Assembly (NCBI GenBank): GCA_045643185.1
Contig: JAZUKH010000046.1
Location: forward strand, 10,883 to 74,882
DNA length: 64,000 nucleotides
From: Myxococcota bacterium
Lineage (GTDB): Bacteria; Myxococcota_A; Bradymonadia; UBA4248
Direction of reading: 5' to 3'
Made by a program: the position numbers and the translations under genes. Below are positions 11,722 through 46,357 of this stretch, one piece after another; the stretch's first letter is position 1; each line of letters opens with the position of its first letter. Below the pieces are notes generated by a model. That model saw only the letters and a list, made by a program, of their open reading frames with translations, was not told the DNA's origin and did not search any database.

Positions 11722-12180
11722 CTACTTGTTTTCTGAGTTGTCGTATATTTCATTATATAAATCTCTGGCTTTTTGTAAGAAGAATAGCATGTATGATTCG
11801 TTTGAATCAATACCATTATTCAGAGTGCTTATCATGTCATTTAAAACATAAAACCCCGTGTTTGCGTATTCTTCAGCATATTGGTACGCTAAAGAATCAT
11901 CATCCAAATTTTCAATTTCGTTATCATGGATAAGTTGATTGATAAGAATTGAGCGCAAAGTGGCTCTTTTGAAATAATCCAGAGTTTCTGAGCGGATAAA
12001 GTCCACGCGTTTTTTTAGTGGTTTTCGTTGACCATTTTCAATGCCAATAGCGACTGCAAATAGAAACAGATCACTTCGATCACAAGATGACTTACCCAGT
12101 TTCATGAAGTCTAAATCATCGATTTGTGGTATGATTTTAGATTGAACGTATGAATCAATATAAATTCTTGGTTCTTGCAT
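11722..12180 (-). CDS. Hypothetical protein, last gene of the AT-rich 6-gene operon
   Basis: AT-rich codon usage matching the island; start immediately follows the upstream stop (12180/12183). Confidence 0.5.
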   Translation of the reverse strand: MQEPRIYIDSYVQSKIIPQIDDLDFMKLGKSSCDRSDLFLFAVAIGIENGQRKPLKKRVDFIRSETLDYFKRATLRSILINQLIHDNEIENLDDDSLAYQYAEEYANTGFYVLNDMISTLNNGIDSNESYMLFFLQKARDLYNEIYDNSENK

Positions 12181-12182
12181 GA

Positions 12183-14168
12183 TTAAATCTCCTTAATGGC
12201 ATTGGTGTAGATTTCATCAATTGGTTTGAGAATGTGTTTGCTTGCTACAATCGTATTTGTGAATTGAGCTTGTATTTCTTTTGAAAATTCAGAGGGTGTT
12301 AGGGCAAGAATGATTTGCTTTGTTTTGCTGATTTCGACAAGTGATTTTGCAAAATTGGATCGATTTTCTGTATCGACACGACCAACAGGAGTATCAATAA
12401 ATAATAAAGAATCAAAACCAGATATTCTATGCATGGCAAGTGTAAAAGCTAAGGCTAATAATTGGCGTTCTGCGGATGAACCGACTAAATCTGTATTATT
12501 TAAATGTTTATTGTAAACGGCCATGTTATAGTCTTCATCGAGCGTAATGCGATCAAATGTATTCTTTTTCCACTCTAACTTTTCAAAAATCCGCATAGTT
12601 TCGGTTTCAATTTGTATTCGAAGGTCTGAGATGCATTTTGTTTTTAATTTTTCAAGAAGATCTAATGCATTGGTCGCAAATAGATAGTAATTATTAACAA
12701 TCTTATTGCTTTCTTGTTTCTGAGTGGCTTCAATTAGTTTTGTTTGATATTCCTTAATCTTTTCTTGGCATTTGTTCAGTTTAGGTGTTAATTGTCCAAT
12801 TTCTTCAGAATCCTTAGCAATTTGATTACGGTAAAAATTTCGTCGTTCAATACAATTTGTAATTTCATCAGGGTCAGGACATAGCTTAATTTTATTGATA
12901 AGTTCTTCCTTGGTTAACTCACATTCTCGTATTTTTTGTTCGATGTGAGCCTGTTCTTTTATAAGACTATTGATTTGATCATTCAAATCGCGTGGCCTTG
13001 AACACCATTTTTCAAGATCACTTTTGATTTCAACGAGTTTGTGTGATACTGATGATGAAAAATTAATCTGGTCAAGTAAATTTTGAATTTTCTGGATAGC
13101 TGTTTCGGATAAGTGACTACCACAGATTTTACATTGTTCATCTTTTAATGTATCATTTAGTACGCTGATATCAATACGAGGAGGAAGTTGTCCTTTGGTG
13201 CTGGCGTCGATGATGTAATGGTATACGGATTGATTTGTTTTATATAAGATAATTGAAATAAATAGATCTCGTGTTAATTTATAAAGTTTGGATTTGTTTG
13301 TATTTAAAGTTTTGTTGAAGTCATCGATCTGGGATTGGGTTAAGTCGAGCTGCTTTTGTTCGTCAGCGATGCATTCCATGCCAGAAATTTGTCTTGTGAG
13401 TCGTTCGAATTCTCTATTTGAAATAGCTCTATCCTGATTTAAGGTGTTTATTTTTCTTTCATATTCATCTTTTGATTGTTTACAATTGTTTAATTCTGTT
13501 TCGATTTCTTGACATTTTGGAATGTCTTTAGAGATTTGTTTGCAATATGAACTTATTACGCCTCGTAAATCGTTTTCTAGGTTTTCTAGATCAGTGATTT
13601 TTGACATCTTATAAATAGAACTTCTTACATTTTTTTGTTGTTGACTATCGAAATAGTCTGATAACTGCTCACCATCAAAAAAGAAGTATCCTCGAATAGC
13701 TTGGGGAAATTTTGAACGAATTATTTCTGTGGCTTCAGCATTCGTTTTAACATCTGATTGGTTTGTTAATAAATTAGTTTGTGTGACAATAAACTCATCT
13801 GCACCAGTCATTTCTGTTCTGACGCTGTATTTTAAAGATCGTTCTATTGTCAATTTTATGTTTTCTATTGTGCTGCGCGCTATTATCACAACTTTTACTG
13901 CGACAAACTCATCACCAATGCCTTTTGTTTCAAGAATCGATTTTGCATTGCAAATTGATTTTTTATCATTTCTATACGTTAATGACCCAATATGTGGCTC
14001 ATCATTATATAAACACCAATTGATGGCATTTAACAGGTTGGTTTTGCCAACGCCGTTACGACCGATAATGATGTGTAGGTCAGCATTGCCCTGATTGGGC
14101 TGATCAAATTGAAAGAAAGCATCCTGATATTGACGGTAGTTAATGATTTTGACGGAATCAATTCTCAT
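12183..14168 (-). CDS. SMC-like Rad50/SbcC-family ATPase with a central CxxC zinc hook
   Basis: N-terminal Walker A GRNGVGKTNLLNAINWCLY; long central coiled coil containing CKICGSHL; C-terminal LLFIDTPVGRVD (D-loop/Walker B region). Confidence 0.7.
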   Translation of the reverse strand: MRIDSVKIINYRQYQDAFFQFDQPNQGNADLHIIIGRNGVGKTNLLNAINWCLYNDEPHIGSLTYRNDKKSICNAKSILETKGIGDEFVAVKVVIIARSTIENIKLTIERSLKYSVRTEMTGADEFIVTQTNLLTNQSDVKTNAEATEIIRSKFPQAIRGYFFFDGEQLSDYFDSQQQKNVRSSIYKMSKITDLENLENDLRGVISSYCKQISKDIPKCQEIETELNNCKQSKDEYERKINTLNQDRAISNREFERLTRQISGMECIADEQKQLDLTQSQIDDFNKTLNTNKSKLYKLTRDLFISIILYKTNQSVYHYIIDASTKGQLPPRIDISVLNDTLKDEQCKICGSHLSETAIQKIQNLLDQINFSSSVSHKLVEIKSDLEKWCSRPRDLNDQINSLIKEQAHIEQKIRECELTKEELINKIKLCPDPDEITNCIERRNFYRNQIAKDSEEIGQLTPKLNKCQEKIKEYQTKLIEATQKQESNKIVNNYYLFATNALDLLEKLKTKCISDLRIQIETETMRIFEKLEWKKNTFDRITLDEDYNMAVYNKHLNNTDLVGSSAERQLLALAFTLAMHRISGFDSLLFIDTPVGRVDTENRSNFAKSLVEISKTKQIILALTPSEFSKEIQAQFTNTIVASKHILKPIDEIYTNAIKEI

Positions 14169-14365
14169 TTTGAAATCTCCTTAGATGTAACATTTCTATT
14201 GATTTCGTTATAAGTCTTTTCTATGATCTTTTGACAAGTCTTTTTATTGTGGATTCTATCATTGAATTGATAATTAATTAGCCTTTGTAATAACTCTTGA
14301 ATGCTTTTGTCGCCACGAGTAACTTCAAGAAGATTCTTTTCGATGAGTTCATTAAGATTTCCCAT
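14165..14365 (-). CDS. Small 66-aa protein, translationally coupled upstream of the SMC-like ATPase
   Basis: ATGA overlap with the downstream gene; lies inside the operon. Confidence 0.4.
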   Translation of the reverse strand: MGNLNELIEKNLLEVTRGDKSIQELLQRLINYQFNDRIHNKKTCQKIIEKTYNEINRNVTSKEISK

Positions 14366-14377
14366 AATATTCTCCTT

Positions 14378-16486
14378 TTATATTAAACCAGTTTTGGTTA
14401 TATCGGCAACCGCCTGGCTTCCGTTTATTGCTTCAGTAGCTATAGCAAAGATTCGTTTCATTTCTTTTTTGAAGATTCGCTTATCAAAATTTCTTTCTTC
14501 ATTTGACCAATCAGAATAATCAGGAGTGACAACAAAATCATCTATATAGGCAAGCTGTTTGTTGCCGTTATCACGTAGCACTCTACCTAAACGCTGAATA
14601 TACTCTCTTGCGTTCTCACTACTTGACAATAGAATTGCCCGTGAGGCTGTCTTGATGTCAATCCCTTCGTCCAGACATTTTATCGCAACAAGTATCTGAT
14701 AATAGCCGTTTCGAAATTTTTCAAGGATATCTTCTCTTTCAGATATACCCTTATCATCAATTTTTGTTGATTCGGACTGCGTAAATCGATGGCCAGATAT
14801 ATTAAGCTTAACAAGTAGTTCTTCAACTTTATCTATCTGTTTGTCTGAGACATAGATAATAGTATCACGAATGTCTGAAATTGAGGAGAGAAGAATTTTT
14901 AATGCAGAGATCTTGTGTTCAGCATTTTTAACGATATTTGCTCTTTTGAATAGCAGTTGTTCATATTTTTCATTATTTTCTATGTCATCATCTTTTGTGT
15001 GAATTAATTTGGATAATTTCTTAGTCAGCTTGTTATATTCGCTAGATTCGTTCTCAGTTAAATTGATAGGATATATATTGTATTTATAACTCACAAGAAA
15101 TGTACGATTTGTTACTGGGTTGATTGTTGTTAATGCATCATGTAATGAAAAAGTGAATTCATTGTTCATAAAATACGATTTAAGCAGATTTGTTCCTTCT
15201 TCATCGAACCATCTATCTGGAGTGGCGCTTAAACCGAGCCGATAATCGTATTTATCGAGCAATGACTTTTTGGTTTTGGAGGCTCCCATGCCATGGACTT
15301 CGTCCCCTATAAGCATGGTTTTATAACTATAGGATTTGATAATCTTTATAAAATCATCAGTGCACGCTGAACAGTGTGTTACATAGATAAGAATTTGTTT
15401 ATAAATTCCAAGATTAGCTTTTTGAAGAACACAGTTCAGATCTTTTTTCCAATTTGTGTGGTTACTATCGCAGACAATTGTTTGATCAAATCGAAGTTGG
15501 AGTGAATCGATTTCCTTTTTCCATTGAGATTGGAGTGTAATTTGTGGAATTGCTATGATTGTCAATAATTTTTGACAATTTTGTTGCGCATTTTCAAGAC
15601 ATTTTACTGCTGTGAAGGTCTTTCCTGTTCCAGTGGCCATTTCGAGCAACATAATTCTGTTACATTCGATCCAGTGTTCAATCGCTCTATTTTGATATGG
15701 AAAAGGCAACTTTTCAGATTGAGGCTTTGTAATAATTGATACACTTGTGTGATATCGGTTTTCGCGATATCGATCTAGAGATAGCTTATCATTTTGATAA
15801 TCTTCGCCTCGTTCTATTAGACGTTGTTTGACCGCAGTTGGTAAGTCTATGACTTCTAGCGAAGCGACGCTGTTATTCCACATTGAGTTAAAGTCGTTTT
15901 GGTGTCCTTGAAAGTATTCTCGTTGACCCGCATTCCAATTTTTATATACCTCGAAACGTTCATCATTCCATAACCAACCTGAGGCCGATTCATTGTTTGA
16001 ACCACTAAAAGAAATGCCATAATCGATTGATTTATTGTCGTACAGAATGCCAAACTTTTGATGCATAATGGGATTGTTGGCTGTATTCCTTACGTCTTTT
16101 ACGATAGCTATTTTTATTTGAAGTTTATTATTGGCCAACATCCAGCCAAGTGCTGCAATATGATCATTGAGAAAGTAATCAGGAATGTCTTCGATTGCAG
16201 TGATCATAGATTCTTCTAGAATCTTGTTTTGGTTTTCAATGACATTTTGAATGGTTTTAATATCATCATCACTTAGTTTTGGACATGTAATGAGTCTCAT
16301 GGTGCCACCATTTGCAATAAGCCCACCAATGCCTCGAGCTGCAATAGCTAAACTAGTTGATGAAAAATACCCCGATATTCTGTCATATTTCCTGGCTTCA
16401 CATAGTGCGGGAATATAGAAATCAGAGATCAAGTCGTCTTCTGAGCTTTTATATTGTATTTTTATGGGCAAATCCTTCAAGCTCAT
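14378..16486 (-). CDS. Fusion of an N-terminal PLD (HKD-motif) nuclease domain to a C-terminal SF2 DEAD/DEAH-box helicase
   Basis: IMHQKFGILYD...GSNN HKD-type motif (single copy); helicase motifs MATGTGKT (I), IGDEVH (II), LSATP (III), QRLGRVLR (VI). Confidence 0.75.
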   Translation of the reverse strand: MSLKDLPIKIQYKSSEDDLISDFYIPALCEARKYDRISGYFSSTSLAIAARGIGGLIANGGTMRLITCPKLSDDDIKTIQNVIENQNKILEESMITAIEDIPDYFLNDHIAALGWMLANNKLQIKIAIVKDVRNTANNPIMHQKFGILYDNKSIDYGISFSGSNNESASGWLWNDERFEVYKNWNAGQREYFQGHQNDFNSMWNNSVASLEVIDLPTAVKQRLIERGEDYQNDKLSLDRYRENRYHTSVSIITKPQSEKLPFPYQNRAIEHWIECNRIMLLEMATGTGKTFTAVKCLENAQQNCQKLLTIIAIPQITLQSQWKKEIDSLQLRFDQTIVCDSNHTNWKKDLNCVLQKANLGIYKQILIYVTHCSACTDDFIKIIKSYSYKTMLIGDEVHGMGASKTKKSLLDKYDYRLGLSATPDRWFDEEGTNLLKSYFMNNEFTFSLHDALTTINPVTNRTFLVSYKYNIYPINLTENESSEYNKLTKKLSKLIHTKDDDIENNEKYEQLLFKRANIVKNAEHKISALKILLSSISDIRDTIIYVSDKQIDKVEELLVKLNISGHRFTQSESTKIDDKGISEREDILEKFRNGYYQILVAIKCLDEGIDIKTASRAILLSSSENAREYIQRLGRVLRDNGNKQLAYIDDFVVTPDYSDWSNEERNFDKRIFKKEMKRIFAIATEAINGSQAVADITKTGLI

Positions 16487-17214
16487 ATATTAATTCTCCA
16501 GTCGATGCAATCCATTAGCTGAATAAGGTAGGATCCAGATAATGCGAATGTTAAGACCTGCTTCGTGTTAGCTTGGCGTCTTACTGCAGTTTTGTATGAA
16601 ATCGAAGATAAACAACTGCTATAGCTCCAAAATCCTTTGGTGTATATTGATTTTAAGATCGTTTGTATGAAAATATTAGAAAATAAAAGCTTTTTTATAA
16701 GCGATGAACGTATTGTTAACGGGTAGATGAGCATTTGATTGCTAAGTGCTGTTATCCTTACTTTGATTGGCTTTTCTTCGCTAATGGTTACCAATTTCAT
16801 CATGGCCGCAAGCTTAGCATGGTTTTCACCATATTTTAGTTGAGCTCCTGGTGTTTTGGATTGTATCAATTGGTAGCCTAAATCTTTAAATCCCATGCCT
16901 TGAGGCATGAATGACAAAATCTCACTTACTCTGAATATGCCATGTTCAAAATTGCTAAAACATGGTATGTCGTTTGCCAATAAAGTAACTTCTTTTATAT
17001 TATTGTCGTTAAAAATCTGATTGATAAAAGCCTCTTCAGAATACTCATTTAGTTTTTGTATGAAAATTTCTAATTCGTCTTTTGAAGCATTGTTGATAAT
17101 GTTATTTATTTCTGGTTCGTTGGTTAAGAATTTATGCAAAAAATCGTCATAAAATTGAGAATTGTAGGCCTGATCGAGATTGTTAGTATTCGCATCTGGA
17201 TATGTGTTATTCAT
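16483..17214 (-). CDS. Hypothetical protein (no recognisable motif), operon member
   Basis: ATGA overlap with the downstream gene; AT-rich island codon usage. Confidence 0.5.
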   Translation of the reverse strand: MNNTYPDANTNNLDQAYNSQFYDDFLHKFLTNEPEINNIINNASKDELEIFIQKLNEYSEEAFINQIFNDNNIKEVTLLANDIPCFSNFEHGIFRVSEILSFMPQGMGFKDLGYQLIQSKTPGAQLKYGENHAKLAAMMKLVTISEEKPIKVRITALSNQMLIYPLTIRSSLIKKLLFSNIFIQTILKSIYTKGFWSYSSCLSSISYKTAVRRQANTKQVLTFALSGSYLIQLMDCIDWRINI

Positions 17215-17216
17215 TA

Positions 17217-18395
17217 CTAAACCTCATTATATCTCATGTCGAAATACTGCTTCGCTATTTGTGGATAGTCTCGCTCAATCTCGAGCAGAGCTTTCATTGA
17301 AGAACAGTAAGTACCTTGTGTTTTGTGAAGAGCCTGATTAGCTTCACAGAACTGGCGAAAACTCATTTTTTTGAGCATGTTTGGTTGGTTGCACCAGCGT
17401 GCGATGCTGACATATAAACTTGAATATGGCGAGATTTTCCAGGGTGTTTCGTTTATATTCTGGTATCGCATGATATAGGGAAGACATTTATAGCGAAGAA
17501 GCAGTTCAATGCGTTTGAATGCATTGGCAATATCCGTGGCATCGGTGCTTTTGAAGCCTACTAGTACATAGAATTTTACACTCGTTGATTGAGTATATTT
17601 TCGAATTAATTTCAGTTTTTGCTCGATAAGCTTATAATCTTCTACGTTATCGAAGGCGAACGTGAAGTCACCATCGTAGTGTGCGTTAAACAGCATTTCA
17701 CATTTTTCTTCGGTGAGTATGCGTTCGTCCAGGCCTTGTTTGAATTTAAAGGGTTTATTGGTGTCGATGAGCTTTTGGAGTAGCGTTTTCCATTTGGGAT
17801 AACCGAGAAAATTGTCGTCTAAAAGGCAAATCTTTTTTAGGTTCTGGTCTAAAAACTCCTCCAAAGGACTATGTTCGAAAACATGGTCATATTTTTGATT
17901 CACGCAGAATGGACAGCGTCTGAAACAGCCTCTTGTCAAAAATCCAATCGAATAATTTGTGTATTCCTTGAATTGAGTCATGAATGATGACTTATTAAAG
18001 TTCTTCCCTTCTTTTAATTTGGTTAATTCGGCCTTCTGGACTTCGTCGGCTATCCATGCGTCATAAAGATGATAATCTGGACAACAGTGTTCGATTTCTG
18101 GGAGGAGGTTAGGTGCTTTGTCGAAATAAAATCCAGTTCCACCAATAGAAACATTTTTATGTTTCGTCAGGTTGATGGGAAAGAGTGGATCTGTTCCAAC
18201 AGGTGTGTCTGTAAATACTTTGGAAACAAAGACATGCTCATAGGCCTCAAGATTTTTGTAGTCAAGTTTGAGTTCGACTGCTTTGCCTTGGGCTTTGTAG
18301 TATGCCGAGAGTTTTTCGCTTGCGAGATTGGGAAAGCGATGTTTATCGCGGGCGATCAGATCTGCATCAATGATGGCAATGGTCATGATAGCCAT
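17217..18395 (-). CDS. Radical-SAM-like protein (CxxxCxxC), possibly with an N-terminal B12-binding-like domain; first gene of the operon
   Basis: GFLTRGCFRRCPFCVNQ contains C-x3-C-x2-C at about residue 155; RBS AGGATGG. Confidence 0.5.
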   Translation of the reverse strand: MAIMTIAIIDADLIARDKHRFPNLASEKLSAYYKAQGKAVELKLDYKNLEAYEHVFVSKVFTDTPVGTDPLFPINLTKHKNVSIGGTGFYFDKAPNLLPEIEHCCPDYHLYDAWIADEVQKAELTKLKEGKNFNKSSFMTQFKEYTNYSIGFLTRGCFRRCPFCVNQKYDHVFEHSPLEEFLDQNLKKICLLDDNFLGYPKWKTLLQKLIDTNKPFKFKQGLDERILTEEKCEMLFNAHYDGDFTFAFDNVEDYKLIEQKLKLIRKYTQSTSVKFYVLVGFKSTDATDIANAFKRIELLLRYKCLPYIMRYQNINETPWKISPYSSLYVSIARWCNQPNMLKKMSFRQFCEANQALHKTQGTYCSSMKALLEIERDYPQIAKQYFDMRYNEV

Positions 18396-18436: not shown

Positions 18437-18449
18437 CCCCCCCCCCCCC
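18437..18449. repeat. Homopolymeric C13 tract in the leader/promoter region of the island operon
   Basis: CGCCCCCCCCCCCCCG read directly; lies between a TATAAT-like box (minus strand, ~18460-18465) and the start codon. Confidence 0.8.
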
Positions 18450-18814: not shown

Positions 18815-19405
18815 TTAGATTTCGTGTTTTTCGACGAGCGTGCGGATGATGCAGGCGGGCGTGTAGAATTCACCGGCGTTTTGGCCTTCCTGACTGGTGA
18901 ACTTAGAGAGGTAGTATTCATAGGTTCGCCCGAGCAAATCTTTGTCGTGCATCTGCGCGTTCATGTCGATATTGGTAAAGAGATTGATGACTTCGCCGAG
19001 TTTTCGTTTGTCAGAGTTCGGGGCGCGCAAAGTTCTTGGGCAGAATGCTGGCAAGTGAAGTGTTTTAGCCTTCGATGGAGGGCAAGGCCTGATCGATCGT
19101 CGTGCCGTTTGTCGCGTTGTGCGCATCGGTTGCAATGACTTTCTAGCGCGCATTTTCGGGCACAAAAAAACGTGCTCTGCTACGTATTCATCTCGATCTT
19201 CTTCAAACCCCTAACCCTCGCCTTCTTCGACGAGCTCCCGATATCGTGCTTCAAAGCGATCGCTGATGTGTTTTAGGAAGATGAGCCCGAGGATAACGGA
19301 TTTATATTCAGCTGCATCGATGTTGCCGCGAAGATTGTCCGCCGCTTTCCAGAGTTTGTCTTCAAATCCAAGTTCTGTTGTTGAGGTTTGGGTTTTCTTT
19401 GCCAT
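18815..19405 (-). pseudogene. hsdM: Decayed type I restriction-modification methylase (hsdM) remnant in two frames
   Basis: Fragment A (19211-19405) LGFEDKLWKAADNLRGNIDAAEYKSVILGLIFLKHISDRFE matches the HsdM_N domain; fragment B (18815-19165, other frame) LLGRTYEYYLSKFTSQEGQNAGEFYTP matches the start of the N6-MTase domain, then stops. Confidence 0.7.
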
Positions 19406-19672
19406 GGTTTTTGTTTTTGTAAATTGTAGGTTGTAGCCATCGAGCCCATCTTGCGTTCCGCTTCGACGGACCCGATTATTATTGTTATGGACAGTTTTAT
19501 AGAGACTCAATAGCAGCGCCTTCCAGGCGCCTTTTTCGGGGATTGTTTTACTCCGGAGGCGGTCGCTACGCGCCCACCCCCGGTTATGCAAGACATCGGC
19601 TTCCAGCCGAATATCTATGGCCATAACAATAATTGCTCATTGTAGTGTCGCCTTCGGTGTGCGCGAAGCGCA

Positions 19673-20343: not shown

Positions 20344-20817
20344 TCATCTTATAAAGAACTTATAATAGTCGCTTTCCTGTGGATATTTCCATGGGTCTGT
20401 TCGATGATTGTAGTACAAATTGCATTCTCTCCCTATAGATATTTTTGTGTTGGTAACATTAGATGTGTTCCATTTGTTCAGAGGTCTGTTAAATGCTGCT
20501 GCACCACTAAACATCTTCTGCATGTTTGTAACATTGGAAACGTCCCAATTGTTAATATCTGAGTTCATTTTTAAAGCGTCACTGAACATTTCGGACATAT
20601 CCATGACGGCAGACAAATCAGGAACGTCCTTTGCTTTAATTACTGCATTTTTAGTTTGAGCCATAAAATAATGCATGCTTCTCCATACGTTTGTTCCCCA
20701 CTGGTCTACACTGAGAAGGGAACAATCATCGTCGTCGAATAGGCGCATCGAAGGTATGGTTCCAAGCAATACAAGCCGAACAAGTCGCGCAGTCTTGCAT
20801 GTCGAAGGCACGAACAA
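20344..20817 (-). pseudogene. Fragment of a surface protein with 26-residue repeats (BspA/Listeria-lipoprotein type)
   Basis: FSDALKMNSDINNWDVSNVTNMQKMFSGAAAFNRPLNKWNTSNVTN matches the F..A..FN..I..WDVSNVT.M..MF repeat; short, AT-rich. Confidence 0.5.
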
Positions 20818-20949: not shown

Positions 20950-21303
20950 TTACACTTCGTGTTTTTCGACGATATAATCTTCAATATTGCGTTTTTCGTG
21001 CGAGAAATTTACGCCCACCAGATACGTCGTTTTGTGTCCCAGGGTGAATGGAAGGACATAATCGTTATCTTTGATCTGATCGAGTGCAAGTTGGGCTGTT
21101 TTGTTGTATTTGAATTCAAAAATATATAAATAATTGCCAGTTTCCATGAGCAGATCGATGCGGCCATCAGCGATTTTATATTCTGCATGGACATAATATC
21201 CGGTCAGTGTTGCCAATAAATAGATAAAATTCTGGAAATGTAGTTCGCGATCGTAGCTGATATCGTATGGTGCACCAGCCAGAAGCACGGTGATGCGTTT
21301 CAT
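20950..21303 (-). CDS. PD-(D/E)XK nuclease-like C-terminal module, split from the upstream AAA-ATPase-like gene
   Basis: Aligns with the C-terminus of the intact paralog at 40484-42067 (IADGRIDLLMETGNYLYIFEFKYNK vs GYADIAFIPY...IVELKRN). Confidence 0.5.
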   Translation of the reverse strand: MKRITVLLAGAPYDISYDRELHFQNFIYLLATLTGYYVHAEYKIADGRIDLLMETGNYLYIFEFKYNKTAQLALDQIKDNDYVLPFTLGHKTTYLVGVNFSHEKRNIEDYIVEKHEV

Positions 21304-21325
21304 AAACGCGTCAATATTACCGGAT

Positions 21326-22480
21326 TCAAGTTCCTTGGAGTGTGCTTTTACAATAGAATGGTACCAGATAATCTATAAATCCTTCTTCAACTTCGCGATT
21401 GGGAAATTTTAATGTATATTCATCAAAATCCGGATCGTAATCTGATATGGTTAAATAACCAGTCTGATAAAGGATCGGAACGGGATCCTCGCTGTCGAAA
21501 TCGATATTTTCCAAATTACTTCCTTTGGTCGTAATTCCGTTAATTTCGTCGAATTGCCAGTGATTTTTATGAATCATTTTTGCCAGAATATCTGGTGTAC
21601 CTGTCGCAAACCAGAATTTGCCAAAGCGAAGACTGTTAAAGGCACTGAGCAGGCTGAATGGATTATACATGCCCGGTCCCTCGGCAGTGAAATGATAGCC
21701 ATCATAGAGTTCTTTTAGCTTCGATTTGGTCTTTTCAATCGAGATTTTCTGCTTTTGAGCGAGCGCTTCGATGTCATCTTCAAATTGCGTTAAAACTTCG
21801 TTTTCAGAAATGCCGCAAATTGCAGAAAACTGTTCATCCAGAGAAATGTCTTGCAGGTTGTTGAGTTCACTGAAAACACTGAGTTTTCCCATTTTGCTCA
21901 CACCGGTGATGAACACAAATCGGATATGTGCGTCTTCGCTTTTCAGGTTGCCGTACAGCCCTCGCAAGGTCGTTCTGTGTTTTTCACGAAGCTCGGGATA
22001 GTCCATGGATTCGACGATCGGTTTTTCGTATTCATCGATCAGGATGACGACTTTTTGGCCGGTCTTTTGGTGTATCGTTTGAATCAGGCGCTGAAAGCGG
22101 ACGTTGAGTTCCAAATCAGCAGGTTCAAGGCCATATTGTTTTTCCCATTCATGAAACTGATAATTCAGTTTGGATCTAAGTTCGCCCTCTTCCGCATAAT
22201 TCGCGCCGTTAAAATCGATCCGCAAAACTGGATATTTGATCCAGTCGTGTTCGATCTGTGCCATGGCGAGCTGGTTGAACAGTTCTTTTTTTCCCTCGAA
22301 ATAGGCTTGTAGCGTGGACAGAAGCAGGCTTTTTCCGAATCGACGCGGGCGTGCAAGGAAATAGTAGCCTTTGTCCTTTGCGATTTCGTAAACCAAGTCC
22401 GTTTTATCGACGTAATAGAAACCGTCTTCACGAATATTTTCAAATGTTTGAATGCCGATCGGGTATTTTTTCTTAGCCAT
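21326..22480 (-). CDS. Predicted AAA-ATPase-like (PF09820-type) protein, truncated or split before its nuclease module; start at MAKKKYPIGIQ
   Basis: YPIGIQTFENIREDGFYYVDKT...FLARPRRFGKSLLLSTL family signature; the upstream extension in the ORF track is read-through of a repeat element. Confidence 0.6.
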   Translation of the reverse strand: MAKKKYPIGIQTFENIREDGFYYVDKTDLVYEIAKDKGYYFLARPRRFGKSLLLSTLQAYFEGKKELFNQLAMAQIEHDWIKYPVLRIDFNGANYAEEGELRSKLNYQFHEWEKQYGLEPADLELNVRFQRLIQTIHQKTGQKVVILIDEYEKPIVESMDYPELREKHRTTLRGLYGNLKSEDAHIRFVFITGVSKMGKLSVFSELNNLQDISLDEQFSAICGISENEVLTQFEDDIEALAQKQKISIEKTKSKLKELYDGYHFTAEGPGMYNPFSLLSAFNSLRFGKFWFATGTPDILAKMIHKNHWQFDEINGITTKGSNLENIDFDSEDPVPILYQTGYLTISDYDPDFDEYTLKFPNREVEEGFIDYLVPFYCKSTLQGT

Positions 22481-22656
22481 AGTCAACCTCACAGGTGTGC
22501 ACGCGCTACCAATCCGTATTATAGCATACATTTTGTTGGTATTAGTACGTGGAGACGTGAGTCTCGAAGTTGAGACGTGCAGGTCATTTTGACCAAGCCA
22601 AGCCGCTAGGTTGAGGTGCACTACTGACTGGTGTGGGCAGCGTGCCATGGGGTTAT

Positions 22657-22752
22657 GGGCCCTGCCAGGTGAAGGGGTAGCGGCGTATTTTTTCCATGAT
22701 GCCACGCAGCATCATGGGAAAAATAGCCGCGTAGGGGAAGGCCTTCCCCTTC
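22657..22752. repeat. REP/MITE-like intergenic repeat, copy 3
   Basis: GCCAGGTGAAGGGGTAGCGGCGTAT-[palindrome TTTTTTCCATGATGC..GCATCATGGGAAAAA]-TAGCCGCGTAGGGGAAGGCCTTCCCCTTC. Confidence 0.85.
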
Positions 22753-40483: not shown

Positions 40484-42067
40484 TTGGCAATGGGTTTGTT
40501 TGTTAATCCAACGGAAGCTTTGTTGAGAATGGGCGTTCGCTCGAGAATTTATGTCGATAAATCGATGTTGATTCACGAGCTCAATCAGCTTTTGAATACG
40601 GAAGAACGCTTCGTGTGCGTATCACGTGCGCGCCGTTTTGGCAAGTCGATGGCTGGTGCCATGATTGCCGCCTATTACAGCAAACTCGCCAAGTCGCGCC
40701 CCATTTTTGAAAAGCTCAAGATCGCGCAGACGTCCGATTTTGAAACGTATCTTAATCAGTTTAACGTTATTCACATCGATATTAACGCGTGTTATTCGAG
40801 TTCAACGCGTCATGAAGACATTGTGCCGTTGTTTACAGCGAACGTGCGTGAAGAACTCCAGGAACAATTTCCAAATTGTGGTATCAACGAACGTGATGCA
40901 CTCGACAAGTGCATTATGAAAATTTATTCAAGAACAGGCGAACAATTTGTATTGATTCTTGATGAATACGATGTTTTGGTGCGCGAAAAAGTGAATGCAT
41001 CGATTTTTGATTCGTATTTGGCTTTTCTCAATGCGATGTTTAAAAATGTAAACCTGGCACCTGCATTTGCACTTGTATATTTGACAGGCATTTTGCCCGT
41101 CGTGCGCGATAAAATTCAATCCAAACTCAATATGTTTCGTGAATATACAATGATAGAGGCTGATCAATTCACTCCATATATAGGATTTAGCGAGGATGAA
41201 GTAAAATCGTTATGCCAAAAGCACGATATGAGTTTTAGCGATTGTAAACGTTGGTATGATGGTTATAAGCTCTATGGTCATAGTTTTTATAATCCATGTT
41301 CTGTTGTGAATGCCATGGTTTCACATCGTTTTGGAAGTTTTTGGACGCAAACAGGATCATATGAGGCACTTAAACAATATATATTAATGAATTTTGAGGG
41401 CATTCGTGATGATGTGTTGACGATGATTGCAGGTGGAAGTGTAAGCGTGAATGTGACGAGTTTCATGAATACCATGACCGATTTTCATACCAAAGACGAT
41501 GTTTTTACCTATCTTATTCATCTTGGCTATCTTGGCTATGATCAAAAACTCCAACGATGTTTTATCCCAAATCAAGAAGTACGTCAGGAATGGATTAATT
41601 CTATTCAAACAAGTTCAGATTATGCCCAAGCGCTTTGCATTGTAAAACATTCTAAAGATTTATTAGATCTTACGATCAATGGCGATGAAAAAGCCGTTGC
41701 TCACGCTATTGACGATGCTCATACCGAACTTGTATCGAATTTACAATATAATAATGAAGGTTGTTTTCAGAGCGTGATTCGCTTCGCCTATTTTTACGCT
41801 AATACACGCTACACTGTGATTTCTGAGTTGCCTGCTGGCAAGGGGTACGCTGATATTGCGTTTATTCCTTATATCCCCAATACGCCAGCGATGATCGTTG
41901 AACTCAAGCGCAACAGCTCCACCGAAACAGCTCTGACGCAGATCGAAAACAAACAATATGATAAAGCCCTTGAACATTATCAGGGCGATCTATTATTTGT
42001 CGCCGTGAATTATGACGAAAAGACGAAAGAACACACGTGTGAGATTAAACGGTTTGTGAAAGAATAA
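40484..42067 (+). CDS. AAA-ATPase-like (PF09820-type) plus C-terminal PD-(D/E)XK nuclease protein; intact paralog of 20950-22480
   Basis: YVDKSMLIHEL...SRARRFGKSMAGAMIAAYY N-terminal signature; C-terminal GKGYADIAF...IVELKRN PD-(D/E)XK-like motif. Confidence 0.65.
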   Translation: MAMGLFVNPTEALLRMGVRSRIYVDKSMLIHELNQLLNTEERFVCVSRARRFGKSMAGAMIAAYYSKLAKSRPIFEKLKIAQTSDFETYLNQFNVIHIDINACYSSSTRHEDIVPLFTANVREELQEQFPNCGINERDALDKCIMKIYSRTGEQFVLILDEYDVLVREKVNASIFDSYLAFLNAMFKNVNLAPAFALVYLTGILPVVRDKIQSKLNMFREYTMIEADQFTPYIGFSEDEVKSLCQKHDMSFSDCKRWYDGYKLYGHSFYNPCSVVNAMVSHRFGSFWTQTGSYEALKQYILMNFEGIRDDVLTMIAGGSVSVNVTSFMNTMTDFHTKDDVFTYLIHLGYLGYDQKLQRCFIPNQEVRQEWINSIQTSSDYAQALCIVKHSKDLLDLTINGDEKAVAHAIDDAHTELVSNLQYNNEGCFQSVIRFAYFYANTRYTVISELPAGKGYADIAFIPYIPNTPAMIVELKRNSSTETALTQIENKQYDKALEHYQGDLLFVAVNYDEKTKEHTCEIKRFVKE

Positions 42068-42142
42068 ATAATCAATTGTACTTTGGAGGTCTCGAACGCG
42101 TGTGAAATATTGTGCAGCGTGATGGTGCTGACTGGGAAAAGC

Positions 42143-42169
42143 AAAAAGGCGGCATAAGCCGCCTTTTTG
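42143..42169. terminator. Bidirectional terminator between convergent genes
   Basis: AAAAAGGCGGC-ATAA-GCCGCCTTTTTG. Confidence 0.75.
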
Positions 42170-42233
42170 CTGTAAGCGTTAATAAGTCATTTGAATAATA
42201 AAGAGCATCGTTTATACGAATGTTATTCTCGGT

Positions 42234-45200
42234 TCATTCTTGGGGAACACAAACATCGTCGGGGGAACAGACAGAACCTTCCGGACAGTCAAAGTCCCCC
42301 TCACAACCACATGTACGATCGTTTAAGCAAATATGACCATTCGCATTGCTTGAACAATGGGTATTTTCTGTGCATTCACCTTCAACACAAATATTGTTGG
42401 AACAGATCGTAGTGTCCGGACAGTCATTGCTCGAATTGCAGCCACATGTATTGTTGCTTAGACAAGCATAACCATTCGCGTTGCTCGAACAGTGAGATGA
42501 CGTATTGCACTCTACACAAGCGGAATGGTTTGTATTCGCGTATGGTGTTGGTTCTGAACACGCTGAACAGCTTGTGTCGGTTGAACCGGTTGAAATGGTA
42601 TTATCAGAACATTCAACACAGGATCTGCCGTCTGCTGAAAGCATAGATCCACTATCACAACTTGTAACTTTGCAAACATTGTTTTGGCATTCGACTGCTG
42701 CCACACCGTTTCCTGCAGTACAGTGCGTGTTTTCTGAACATTCGACACAAGCGGTGTGATCATCATTCGCATGGGGTTTGGTTCCAGTGCATGCTGAGCA
42801 GCTTATACCCGTCGTCGAAATGTGATCCGTGGGACAAGTTTCGCATTCACGCTTGGATGTGTTGGGGCTAGAACCCGGTGTGCAAGCATAGACTTTGCAA
42901 ATACCAGAGACACAGTCTGTGGAAACGCTATTTGCTATTTCTAAACATTCAGAAGCTTCGACACAGCCTGTTTTTATGCAAATCTTCGTGTCGTCGCCAG
43001 TTAATGAATATCCGGTATTGCAAGAATACACACACTTGTTGGCGCTGTTACATGTCCCCGTGCCGTTATCGATGGTGCAGTCTGTATCTTCGGTACAGCC
43101 CGTCTTTTCGCAAGTTTTGTGATCGGAATCAGTTACTATTGAATAACCAGCATTGCATGAATATACGCATTGATTAGCACTGTTACATGTACCGGTACCA
43201 TTCGTAATGGTACAGTCACTATCACTTAGACAGCCAACTTTATTGCACGTTGAACCGTTCAAGGTATAGCCGGGGTCGCATGAATAATTGCAAGTATGTG
43301 AGCTGCTGCAAGTTCCGGATCCAAAAGTAATTGGACATTCTGCGTCATTAACGCATCCTGTTTTTTCACAGATATTTCCGTTTAATGTATAACCAGGATC
43401 ACATAAGTAATCACAGGTATTGGCACTATTGCAAATACCCTTACCATGGTCTAGTGAACAGTCATTATCTGATGTGCATCCTGTTTTTTCACAAGTATTT
43501 TCATTTAATGAATAACCGGGTTTACAATTTTCAACTTTACAAGAGCCTGTTTCGCAGGAGACTGACAATACAGCGGCAGCGCCTCCCAATCCTTCGGTGC
43601 TTGTCGAACAGGTGACATTGCAGGCACCGCAATGTGCCAAGGTGGCAGGTTTGTCACTGGCTTGGGTAACACAGGTTGAACCACACAACGTTGTTCCGGC
43701 ACCGCAACTGGTTGTACATTTGCCATTTGAACAAATGGTGCCGACGTTACAAATTTCACCTTGGTCTAAGGGCCCCGTGGCACCGCAATGATAGTTGTCT
43801 GTTTTGGCATTCACGCATTGAATACCGGAGGCTGTATCAGAATTACTGATGTTCACAAATCCATCGCCAGTGCATTGGTATTTACAGGTTCCATCAACAC
43901 ATGAAGCAACTGCAGTATTGATCGGTTTATATGTATTACAAACAAAACCACAAGCACCGCAGTTATTGGTGTCGCTTGCGTGAATATCGATACAGGCTTT
44001 TCCGCTCGAGGTTGAGCATAAGGTTTTGTCTTCTGGACATGTATTTAATTCACAATTGCCATTAATACAGGCTTTTCCCTGAGTTGAACAGTTCTTTAAT
44101 GTTGTTCCGCATTCAGTGTTGCTGTCAGCAATACATTTCCCTGCATTAAGGTGATAACCTGGCGTGATACAAGCGGTTGCGACACACTGGTTATTCCAGC
44201 AGGAACCACCATTCCAGCCCGCGGTGTCAGAACACTTATATTCGCTCATACCACAGTTATCTTCGTTACTTTTTTTGCAGGAAGCCGTGGCATTATCATA
44301 GTATTGATCTGAACCGCAGTTTGCTTTGCATTCGTTATTGATAACGGCATAGCCTTCTTTACAAGTTTGGACAAAACATTCGTTGTTGTTACAGGATCCT
44401 GTACTCCAGTTAGAAATATGCGCATAACATTTGTAACCTTTCATACCGCAGTTATCTAGGTTGCTCGTTTTACAAGTGACATCGTAATACTGAGTATCGT
44501 TACAACTGGAAACACAGGTATTGTTATTAACGGTATAGCCATCGTTGCATTGAGAAACTGAGCATTTGCCCGCTGAACATTTGACTGTTTTGGAGTTTTT
44601 GATCTCATCCGAACAGGCATGTCCCGTGGCACCGCAATTATTGACATCATCGGCAATGCAGCGTGCTTGTTTATTATCGTAATGTTGTCCAACGGAGCAG
44701 TCGGAAACGCATTGTTTTCCGTCAGAAGAGGGTTTGAAGCCGGATCCACATTCTGTCACAACGCAAACATTGTTAGAACAATTGCCTGTTATCCAATTAG
44801 AAATATGGGTTGAGCATTGATAGCCTTTCATGCCGCAGTTTGCGACGTCACTGGTCGCGCAGGCACCCGTTGAACTGTCGTAATATTTCGTCGTATCGCA
44901 GTTTGCTTTGCATTCGTTATGGATAACGGCATAGCCTTCTTGGCAGGTTTGGACAGAGCAGATGTTGTTGTTACAGGTTCCTGAACTCCAGTTAGAAATA
45001 TGCTCAGAACACTTGTAACCTTTCATACCGCAGTTATCGGTATCGCTCGTTTTGCAAGTGACATCGTAATACTGAGTATCGTTGCAACTCGAAACGCAGG
45101 TATTATTGTTAACGGTATAACCCTCGTTACATGCGGAAACTGAGCATTTACCAGAAGAACAACTTACGGTGTTAGAGTTTTTGATTTCATCTTTGCAGGC

Positions 45201-46145
45201 ATGGCCTGTGGCGCCGCAGTTGTCGACATCATTGGCAACGCATTTGGCTTGTTCGCTGTCGTAATGTTCATCCACCGTGCAGTTGGAAACGCACTTATTA
45301 TCCGTAACTTTATAGCCGGTCTCACATGCTGAAACGGTACAAATACCATTTATACATGAGCCATCTGTCCATTGGGCCACGTTATCTTTGCATACATAGT
45401 CAGTGGCACCACAATTGAATATATCATCGGGAACACAGCTTTGTGCATCATTGTCATAGTGTTGGCCTTTTTCACAGGCAGATACACACGTTTTTTTATC
45501 TGTCGCTGGTTTAAATCCTTGTTCACATTGATCAACAATACAAAGCTCATTTTCACATTTGCCACTAACCCAGTTGGTGATAAAATTCTCACAGCTTGAG
45601 GTGTCTTTTTCTGTGCATTGTTTAACAGGTTTTCTACAATGAAATATATCTCCACTTAAAGCACAGGTTTGATAGTTATTGGGGCAGATGTTGTACTTAA
45701 AAGCATCCGGAAATACGCTTTTTTCTTTGCAATCATTTCTATCTGTGCAAAGACCATCGATATAACCTAATTCAAGGTTTTTGTTGTTGTTAAAAAGATT
45801 TTGATAAGTTGAATATTTATAGATGACTTTTCCATTGTATACATATTCGCCAATGTTGTTTAATATTGGATATATTTTCTTTTCGTCTTGTGTAATTGGA
45901 TTGCAATTTTTTAGATCTGTTTCATCTAATTTACATAAATAATGATCGTTTCCATCAATATCGTACACATAAATTCGTGGCGGGCATGCGACGATCTCTT
46001 CACTCGTGTCATCAACATAGGTGTCATACAGAGCACTGTCCCACGAGCACCCACTCATTCCCAGGGTTGCAACGGTTGCCAGAACAGCCAGAGGCAGCCC
46101 TACATGCCTTGGTTTTGACTGGAATACACGCCTGCGATATTTCAT
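42234..46145 (-). CDS. Giant (~1300 aa) cysteine-rich repeat lipoprotein with EGF-like modules
   Basis: ATG at 46143-46145 with GGAGG RBS (the ORF track starts at an upstream TTG); lipobox ...LGMSGCSW; ~200 Cys in C-x-C..GY.L.G..C modules; 582-bp internal direct repeats. Confidence 0.7.
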   Translation of the reverse strand: MKYRRRVFQSKPRHVGLPLAVLATVATLGMSGCSWDSALYDTYVDDTSEEIVACPPRIYVYDIDGNDHYLCKLDETDLKNCNPITQDEKKIYPILNNIGEYVYNGKVIYKYSTYQNLFNNNKNLELGYIDGLCTDRNDCKEKSVFPDAFKYNICPNNYQTCALSGDIFHCRKPVKQCTEKDTSSCENFITNWVSGKCENELCIVDQCEQGFKPATDKKTCVSACEKGQHYDNDAQSCVPDDIFNCGATDYVCKDNVAQWTDGSCINGICTVSACETGYKVTDNKCVSNCTVDEHYDSEQAKCVANDVDNCGATGHACKDEIKNSNTVSCSSGKCSVSACNEGYTVNNNTCVSSCNDTQYYDVTCKTSDTDNCGMKGYKCSEHISNWSSGTCNNNICSVQTCQEGYAVIHNECKANCDTTKYYDSSTGACATSDVANCGMKGYQCSTHISNWITGNCSNNVCVVTECGSGFKPSSDGKQCVSDCSVGQHYDNKQARCIADDVNNCGATGHACSDEIKNSKTVKCSAGKCSVSQCNDGYTVNNNTCVSSCNDTQYYDVTCKTSNLDNCGMKGYKCYAHISNWSTGSCNNNECFVQTCKEGYAVINNECKANCGSDQYYDNATASCKKSNEDNCGMSEYKCSDTAGWNGGSCWNNQCVATACITPGYHLNAGKCIADSNTECGTTLKNCSTQGKACINGNCELNTCPEDKTLCSTSSGKACIDIHASDTNNCGACGFVCNTYKPINTAVASCVDGTCKYQCTGDGFVNISNSDTASGIQCVNAKTDNYHCGATGPLDQGEICNVGTICSNGKCTTSCGAGTTLCGSTCVTQASDKPATLAHCGACNVTCSTSTEGLGGAAAVLSVSCETGSCKVENCKPGYSLNENTCEKTGCTSDNDCSLDHGKGICNSANTCDYLCDPGYTLNGNICEKTGCVNDAECPITFGSGTCSSSHTCNYSCDPGYTLNGSTCNKVGCLSDSDCTITNGTGTCNSANQCVYSCNAGYSIVTDSDHKTCEKTGCTEDTDCTIDNGTGTCNSANKCVYSCNTGYSLTGDDTKICIKTGCVEASECLEIANSVSTDCVSGICKVYACTPGSSPNTSKRECETCPTDHISTTGISCSACTGTKPHANDDHTACVECSENTHCTAGNGVAAVECQNNVCKVTSCDSGSMLSADGRSCVECSDNTISTGSTDTSCSACSEPTPYANTNHSACVECNTSSHCSSNANGYACLSNNTCGCNSSNDCPDTTICSNNICVEGECTENTHCSSNANGHICLNDRTCGCEGDFDCPEGSVCSPDDVCVPQE

Positions 46146-46357
46146 GATGACCTCCAAAAGGGTTTAACTGTGGGTGAAATGCCGTAAAACTTTCAAATTT
46201 TCTCCAATTCAGAACGAATTAGTTACCAAAACACGATTCTACATTATACCGTTTATTCATTTTATATGGCAATTGATTTCGGCTGTTCTCGAGTTACAGT
46301 TCAGCCTCATTGCCAGCGCGATGTTATTATCTCAACCGGGGCATGAATCATAAAAGC

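Follow-up and report, generated by a model that had tools for sequence, protein, structure and literature searches.

The window analysed here, a 64,000-nucleotide stretch of contig JAZUKH010000046.1 from a Myxococcota bacterium (assembly GCA_045643185.1, positions 10,883 to 74,882), carries a six-gene operon on its minus strand, from 18395 to 11722, that sets a divergent radical S-adenosylmethionine (radical-SAM) enzyme and a partner protein of a new family ahead of four genes of the Pbe type. The six genes are tightly packed, with intergenic spacing (gaps or overlaps) of −4 to +12 nt, and lie within an island of 33–36% guanine–cytosine (GC) content whose flanks have 50–58% GC. The enzyme gene had been described in an earlier note, made from the sequence alone, as the first gene of the island operon, and it is indeed the 5′-most of the six.

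This gene occupies 17217..18395 on the minus strand; the plus-strand translation of the same interval is full of stops. Its open reading frame (ORF) encodes 392 amino acids (aa), or 389 aa from the second ATG (M4, at 18386), which is likely to be the true start on the evidence of the sequence: AAGGA stands 9 nt upstream of this ATG, and a start here agrees with an identical 389-aa database protein (P0001) and with the starts of homologues. Further upstream, 42–54 nt ahead of the operon’s first ATG, lies a 13-nt poly-G tract (18437..18449 on the minus strand; poly-C on the plus strand). It is the only C or G homopolymer of at least 10 nt in the window, where shuffled sequences give an expectation of 0, and it is a possible slipped-strand phase-variation switch with a putative tie to the system. 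Conservation of the tract as a regulatory element was rejected: of 66 related loci, L020 alone has an upstream G10, at −260.

The partner gene follows at 16483..17214 (minus strand, 243 aa), and the four genes downstream of it appear to correspond in order and kind to PbeABCD. That system (Xiong et al. 2019, PMC6459918) has been re-annotated as a ‘CxC ABC-ATPase-DndE’ system (Rakesh, Aravind & Krishnan 2024, PMC10853773), in which PbeA is a fusion of an HKD nuclease and a superfamily 2 (SF2) helicase, PbeB is small and rapidly evolving, PbeC is a CxC ABC ATPase and PbeD is a DndE cognate. In the window, PbeA (14378..16486, minus strand; PADLOC PbeA model, E = 6.5e-217) is a PLD/HKD-type nuclease fused to an SF2 helicase and is presumed to be the restriction effector. 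Pfam ResIII and Helicase_C match it above threshold and PLDc_2 below; the helicase motifs GTGKT and DEVH stand at aa 286 and aa 395, and TIGR04095 (dnd_restrict_1, ‘DNA phosphorothioation system restriction enzyme’) matches at E = 6.7e-108, below its cut-off.

Where PbeB would be expected, between the PbeA and PbeC genes, the ORF list has a small basic protein (14165..14365, minus strand; 66 aa, pI 9.2) whose stop overlaps the PbeC start by 4 nt. No PADLOC model matched this 66-aa ORF; the same position holds ORFs of 57–58 aa in loci L001 and L004. Another candidate for PbeB, the 243-aa partner, was rejected since this separate ORF holds the position. PbeC (12183..14168, minus strand; PADLOC PbeC, E = 5.2e-79; TIGR03185 DndD, E = 5e-36) is a DndD-like ABC ATPase of the CxC clade with a coiled coil. 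Its hook motif, CKIC (aa 346–349), sits in the middle of the coiled coil, and all 20 homologues in related loci have a mid-protein CxC or CxxC. The last gene (11722..12180, minus strand) encodes an acidic protein of 152 aa in the PbeD position, which is kept in L001 and L004 at 142–152 aa; it matches TIGR04062 (dnd_assoc_4) at E = 8e-7, with 29 bits against a 74-bit cut-off, and is by sequence a probable DndE cognate.

What the operon adds to this module sets it apart. CxC-ATPase/DndE cores, described Pbe systems among them, occur with the phosphorothioation genes dndCDEA or with methylases of the cytosine C5/N4 kind (PMC10853773), whereas here and in 22 other species-level loci a radical-SAM enzyme and a novel partner stand in that place. 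No phosphorothioation (dnd or ssp) genes and no intact methylase were found in the window operon or its immediate neighbours with Pfam, PADLOC and NCBIfam; neither phosphorothioation genes nor cytosine methylases recur in the flanks of 30 related loci, and the text and one supplementary file of PMC10853773 make no mention of a radical-SAM partner of Pbe.

A divergent radical-SAM enzyme and its partner

The earlier note had pointed to a radical-SAM CxxxCxxC motif at about residue 155. The motif, TRGCFRRCPFC (residues 154–164; 17904..17936, minus strand), lies in the loop after core strand β1 (aa 148–151), and its cysteines, C157-x3-C161-x2-C164, are the expected ligands of a [4Fe-4S]/SAM cluster. 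Of 207 homologues with a length of 330 aa or more, 203 have the C-x3-C-x2-C spacing, as do 83 of the 87 sequences that represent clusters at 50% identity, and in an alignment of 58 sequences reaching down to 30% identity the triad is conserved to 90% or more; this conservation across homologues, which the note had asked about, shows that the motif is not there by chance. The other cysteines of the window enzyme (C190, C304, C350 and C364) are not conserved family-wide in that alignment. By eye, the core motifs LLDDN and VLVGF are typical of the wider MiaB/HemN/B12 radical-SAM group.

The Pfam check that the note proposed would by itself have missed this protein. It gave 16.3 bits (E = 0.011) for Radical_SAM (PF04055), below the gathering threshold of 29.5, with weak matches in 38 of the 58 aligned homologues at E ≤ 0.1 (best E = 9e-5); NCBIfam and PADLOC scans of the enzyme yielded nothing useful, and PHROG 9298 (‘radical SAM domain protein’) matched at E = 1e-52. 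The sub-threshold score reflects a divergent family and is no argument against a radical-SAM fold. Clustering at 90% identity gives more than 6099 clusters for the family, and at 50% identity 1711 cluster representatives match at E ≤ 1e-3; the best 120 matches are 65–71% identical to the window enzyme over lengths of 383–413 aa, with no precomputed Pfam domain. The family is both large and highly conserved, and has as yet no name.

A radical-SAM core around the triad had been set beforehand as a test, and the AlphaFold2 model of the enzyme (predicted local distance difference test score (pLDDT) 85, predicted template-modelling score (pTM) 0.83) contains one. In the model, an N-terminal α/β domain with a helical linker (aa 1–146) is followed by the core (aa 147–310) and a C-terminal helical bundle (aa 311–392), the final 80 residues being all helical. 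The N-terminal part has predicted strands at 5–10, 39–42, 54–58 and 82–84 with helices, and then helices at 112–146; the core forms a (β/α)6 partial barrel of six β–α units (aa 148–309), with the cysteine triad after the first strand. Foldseek against the Protein Data Bank (PDB) returned MiaB (7mjy) as the best match (E = 4e-6, TM score 0.46). Three matches had E ≤ 0.001, all of them MiaB, and next came SuiB, BlsE, anSME, MqnE and LipA, all radical-SAM proteins. Because a core fold is predicted around the triad and the triad is conserved, the assignment stands: on model and alignment, the enzyme is a genuine, if very divergent, radical-SAM-fold protein, predicted to cleave SAM.

Class assignment within the superfamily went less well for the earlier proposals. 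The note had described the N-terminal domain as Rossmann- or B12-binding-like and the protein as resembling class B (cobalamin-dependent) enzymes. The first half of that description is acceptable in view of the small predicted α/β domain, and an N-terminal α/β domain ahead of a CxxxCxxC core is common to the enzyme and the class B methylases. The cobalamin part is not supported: the B12-binding family PF02310 matches 0 of 58 homologues at E ≤ 0.1, the enzyme family thus having no detectable cobalamin domain, and none of the 50 PDB fold matches listed is described as a cobalamin-dependent (class B) radical-SAM enzyme. We rejected class B on the PF02310 result.

MiaB and RimO, the best solved structural neighbours, share with the enzyme an α/β N-terminal domain followed by a radical-SAM core. 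They differ in that the enzyme lacks their N-terminal three-cysteine auxiliary [4Fe-4S] site (homologues have a median of 1 cysteine before the triad, none conserved) and has a helical bundle in place of their C-terminal TRAM domain; identity to them is 12–14%, with no sequence-level match even when a family profile is used. MiaB-like sulfur insertion came into consideration because the downstream effectors are of the phosphorothioate type. It is unlikely, since the auxiliary-cluster cysteines are not conserved, and no recurrent linked desulfurase was seen.

Two relatives carry insertions or annotations of a particular kind. The 734-aa homologue P0169 has an insertion of about 355 aa containing LAGLIDADG between query residues 152 and 154, directly before TRGC, which is consistent with an intein at the active-site loop. 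A hit on an archaeal plasmid (H27, LC711081.1) is annotated ‘radical SAM superfamily enzyme with an N-terminal intein homing ...’.

The partner had no match in Pfam, NCBIfam or PADLOC, and a sequence search of solved structures gave noise only. Its N-terminus (aa 1–79) is acidic and variable, with pI 4.05, and the remainder (aa 80–243) is basic and conserved, with pI 9.68; the invariant motifs KYGENHxK and LSxSTxxRR(R)xNVK lie in the C-terminal region. We also sought, in alignment A4, an N-terminus that tracks effector type; the pattern was not clean, and we make no claim from it. The AlphaFold2 model (pLDDT 92.4) is helical with two small hairpins, and Foldseek returned weak matches of winged-helix type only (ROQ, MarR, ArsR/CzrA, PadR and Z-alpha). 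On this model the partner is predicted to be a winged-helix-like nucleic-acid binder or adaptor.

Enzyme and partner belong together. The partner was detected in 38 of the 46 Genome Taxonomy Database (GTDB) loci in which the enzyme is full-length and the sequence downstream is long enough for classification. In P0124, P0137, P0143, P0147 and P0200 the enzyme carries the partner’s C-terminal region at its end, and in P0364, P0366, P0368, P0369, P0371 and P0374 the partner is fused to a PLDc_2 nuclease. In a minimal two-gene form, L066:3965-6307, a PLDc_2–partner fusion of 378 aa precedes a radical-SAM enzyme of 361 aa, and the nuclease portion of the fusion weakly resembles DrmC of DISARM (8e-12). 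Across the GTDB loci, the enzyme has a median identity of 63% to its counterpart in the window, against 30% for the partner, 40% for PbeA, 28% for PbeC and 26% for PbeD. Such a contrast between a conserved catalyst and a partner that changes fast would be expected of a catalytic plus a specificity or adaptor subunit. The two proteins are a conserved, occasionally fused two-component pair, the invariant part of operons whose nuclease or helicase part is exchangeable.

Exchangeable downstream modules and phage copies

A scan of one genome per GTDB species found 60 loci, 47 of them with a full-length enzyme, at 53–70% identity to the window protein. The hosts are mostly gut and rumen anaerobes (Clostridia, Negativicutes, Fibrobacter, Verrucomicrobiota, Spirochaetota, Bacteroidota and Mollicutes) and also include candidate-phyla-radiation (CPR) bacteria and DPANN archaea. 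The enzyme is found at 41–64% identity in metagenome-assembled genomes of Nanoarchaeia (L038) and Gracilibacteria (L048) and in a Methanomassiliicoccales virus (L072); its occurrence in DPANN, CPR and an archaeal virus indicates recent inter-domain transfer among gut anaerobes. In many loci a small Xre-type helix-turn-helix (HTH) gene stands ahead of the enzyme, as controller genes do in restriction-modification operons. The flanks of 30 loci, with 149 ORFs, have resolvases, integrases, WYL, HTH and AAA_15/21 as their recurrent Pfam families; the 25 commonest families, the last of which had two members, include neither PAPS reductases nor cysteine desulfurases.

Classified by the gene directly 3′ of the enzyme, usually after the partner, the 47 full-length loci fall into several types. 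A Pbe module follows in 23, a module of ParB_N-like protein, 136-aa protein, SNF2 helicase and HTH_ParB-like protein in 10, a single DUF262 (GmrSD_N) protein of 540–680 aa with HNH or GmrSD_C in 7, and DndF-DndG-DndH in 1; 5 have other downstream genes (two of these loci being phage-like), and for the last the contig is too short to classify. The context is thus DNA-targeting in 41 of the 46 classifiable loci. A second, independent DndFGH case, L068, has DndF (4.6e-161), DndG (9.4e-81) and a DndH-sized gene adjoined by a fusion of radical-SAM enzyme and partner and by an extra partner-like gene.

The ParB/SNF2 module is conserved but uncharacterised. It replaces the Pbe genes 3′ of the enzyme (L002:11905-15786, and ten GTDB loci such as L007, L010 and L011) and comprises a ParB_N-like protein of 335 aa, a 136-aa protein, an SNF2 helicase of 501 aa that resembles the helicase parts of ZorD and DpdE, and an HTH_ParB-like protein of 328 aa. 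In most such loci the partner gene lies at the 3′ end of the module.

This arrangement parallels the Dnd and Ssp phosphorothioate systems, in which one modification module is likewise swapped among several restriction modules. A 2025 EcoSal review (PMC12707154) names three phosphorothioate restriction branches, dndFGH, sspE (DUF262-DUF1524) and pbeABCD, and all three architectures (DndFGH, DUF262-nuclease and Pbe) are also found beside the radical-SAM pair, although the DUF262 proteins next to the enzyme give no match to the PADLOC SspE models. The modification side differs. The cysteine desulfurase and the DndC/SspD PAPS-reductase-like protein of DndABCDE and SspABCD were not found in the window operon or its immediate neighbours, and the catalyst here is instead a canonical single-cluster radical-SAM barrel.

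Seventeen phage records encode homologues of the enzyme, for which ‘radical SAM domain protein’ is the sole annotation. The homologue of Oscillospiraceae phage NatCom_21982 overlaps an upstream DNA methyltransferase gene, that of a Bacteroides LoVEphage lies between a PAPS-reductase-like gene and Dam methyltransferase genes, and that of an archaeal virus is directly adjacent to a ParB-like gene. The partner was not detectable beside the phage copies or in the phage-like loci L049 and L061; L070 is the exception among the phage copies, with the partner present. Partner-less copies beside methyltransferases fit what might be expected, by analogy, of an orphan protective DNA-modifying enzyme.

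A candidate DNA-marking module

Host DNA is marked as self mainly by SAM-dependent methylation and more rarely by phosphorothioation or insertion of 7-deazaguanine. The gene context described above points to a further case, direct marking of DNA in a restriction-modification-like system, rather than to production of a modified nucleotide. From two features of that context, the modularity of the gene neighbourhoods and the orphan copies in phages, we infer that DNA would be the substrate, that the mark would separate self from non-self and that the partner would give DNA binding or targeting. We judge it somewhat likelier true than false that a radical-SAM DNA-marking module replaces phosphorothioation or methylation in these restriction-like systems. 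To a wider claim we give slightly less than an even chance: that a new enzymatic DNA modification, made directly on DNA by a single-cluster radical-SAM enzyme that a winged-helix partner guides, serves as the self-mark for interchangeable modules (Pbe, DndFGH, DUF262-nuclease, ParB/SNF2 and PLD) in thousands of gut and rumen anaerobes and has been copied by phages as an anti-restriction device.

In such a system, enzyme and partner would form the modification arm, chemically marking the cell’s own DNA. The enzyme would use a 5′-deoxyadenosyl radical, or another SAM-derived radical, to alter DNA, and the partner would supply DNA binding, targeting or coupling to the effector. PbeC and the DndE-like PbeD would scan DNA; the HKD nuclease-helicase PbeA would attack unmarked DNA or be controlled by the mark in its cutting or translocation, with the small PbeB-like protein as a possible regulator. 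The mark could either protect, as in classical restriction-modification, or license the effector, as phosphorothioate does for SspE. The earlier suggestion that the enzyme is the chemistry-generating component of the locus is, in this light, very plausible.

There is precedent for a radical-SAM enzyme that installs a modification on DNA. Phage M6 gp53, a radical-SAM isomerase that resembles spore photoproduct lyase (SPL), tailors a pre-installed amino-acid adduct on 5-hydroxymethyl-2′-deoxyuridine in phage DNA (PMC8989533). Like gp53 and SPL, the enzyme here would be a DNA-acting radical-SAM protein, but it comes from a different sub-family, is mainly cellular and is linked to restriction genes. 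In the literature covered, outside of which lay Krishnan et al. 2020 and subscription journals, we found no description of the enzyme–partner pair or of its linkage to Pbe, DndFGH or DUF262.

Several points weigh against this interpretation. The case for DNA as the substrate is indirect, no result points to the product, and the mark could protect or activate. The enzyme has no relatives of solved structure by sequence, with either the single sequence or the family profile, and its Pfam score is below threshold. For the partner, the fold matches behind the winged-helix assignment are weak, with a best E of 0.3, and its invariant motifs occupy the place where a variable specificity surface might be expected. 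Moreover, no partner was detected in the Pbe-type loci L039 and L057, the DndFGH locus L012, the DUF262-type locus L045 or the ParB/SNF2-type locus L036, the contig of which may end before the partner’s usual position. Finally, DndFGH has been argued to be stand-alone (PMC10853773), and adjacency could be defence-island clustering.

The best surviving alternative, though an unlikely one, is that the enzyme makes a small molecule or modified nucleotide, such as a viperin-like chain terminator or a QueE-like precursor, that acts alone or is inserted into DNA by another protein. Viperins and the QueE of Dpd are radical-SAM enzymes in defence loci that act on free nucleotides or precursors, and defence radical-SAM enzymes (prokaryotic viperins, pVips, and QueE in Dpd) are known for such chemistry. 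Ophion likewise pairs a radical-SAM enzyme with nucleotide-modifying partners (bioRxiv 10.1101/2025.09.30.679545). The likeness to viperin or QueE that the earlier note had raised did not hold: a radical-SAM protein in a defence context is what they share, but the operons pair it with other proteins, Pfam and NCBIfam revealed no similarity in sequence, and the 50 PDB matches listed include neither name. Proteins that handle nucleotides, such as a transglycosylase, polymerase or kinase, are absent from the conserved operons; their one constant partner is winged-helix-like and elsewhere fused to a nuclease, and phage copies adjoin DNA methyltransferases.

A little less probable again is a protein maturase that modifies the partner or the nuclease module so as to activate or restrain it. 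Enzyme and partner are linked and sometimes fused, the lower-ranked fold matches include the peptide- and protein-modifying SuiB and anSME, and in the HXS defence system the effector is matured by a radical-SAM enzyme (PMC13128918). Yet the cysteines of a SPASM or twitch auxiliary cluster are not conserved, and the partner is confidently folded and helical, with no repeat or leader-peptide features. It is also not detected with the phage copies and several bacterial loci, and four unrelated effector modules would each have to be a substrate.

We consider it improbable that the enzyme modifies tRNA or rRNA in the manner of MiaB and is only loosely tied to nuclease genes. The best solved structural match is indeed to RNA-complexed MiaB; against this stand the absence from the enzyme of the MiaB auxiliary three-cysteine site and TRAM β-barrel, the prevalence of DNA-targeting contexts and the occurrence of the gene on mobile elements and in phages. 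Least probable is an enzyme that itself damages DNA by radical strand scission, or an SPL-like repair effector: 5′-deoxyadenosyl radicals can abstract sugar hydrogens and SPL acts on DNA (PMC8989533), but a dedicated domain of nuclease type or a helicase is already present in every kind of module (HKD, HNH, the restriction-enzyme-like DndF or SNF2), the 50 fold matches listed include no entry named SPL, and phages are unlikely to keep a DNA-damaging enzyme beside protective methyltransferases.

These four alternatives are less consistent than DNA marking with the partner–nuclease fusions, the four-fold modularity of DNA effectors and the phage orphans beside methyltransferases. We view the system as one in the style of restriction-modification or phosphorothioation with a new class of modification enzyme, and with a substantial chance of new DNA chemistry. 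If this is correct, radical chemistry would provide a new kind of self-mark, a third chemistry besides methylation and phosphorothioation that feeds the same effectors. The three phosphorothioate-reading branches (DndFGH, SspE-type and Pbe) would then also serve another modification, which bears on what these effectors actually sense. The enzyme family, unusually conserved across phyla, has its main occurrence among anaerobes of gut and rumen and the phages of these organisms; an unrecognised DNA modification in them could influence the signals of metagenomic sequencing, the host range of phages and the ease of genetic work. The DNA-marking interpretation is directly testable because several cultured isolates carry the system, among them Lachnospiraceae bacterium JC7, Anaerovibrio sp. 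JC8, Megasphaera sp. AM44-1BH and Dialister sp. i34-0019-2H8.

Surroundings of the island

Upstream of the operon lies a broken hsdM gene for a type I methyltransferase (18815-19624, minus strand), consisting of an HsdM_N fragment (19624-19211) and the start of an N6_Mtase domain (19165-18815). The second fragment stops where the low-GC island starts, and the island seems to have displaced the remainder of a type I restriction-modification system. Close to the island are also a DUF285 fragment (20344-20817) and, at 20950-22705 on the minus strand, a predicted AAA-ATPase_like protein of 459 aa (E = 1e-68) followed by a 117-aa ORF of the PDDEXK_9 nuclease family; these last two are probably one disrupted gene or a pair. 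A second stretch of lower GC content (38–45%) extends from 41000 to 46200 and contains a 1307-aa minus-strand ORF at 42234-46157.

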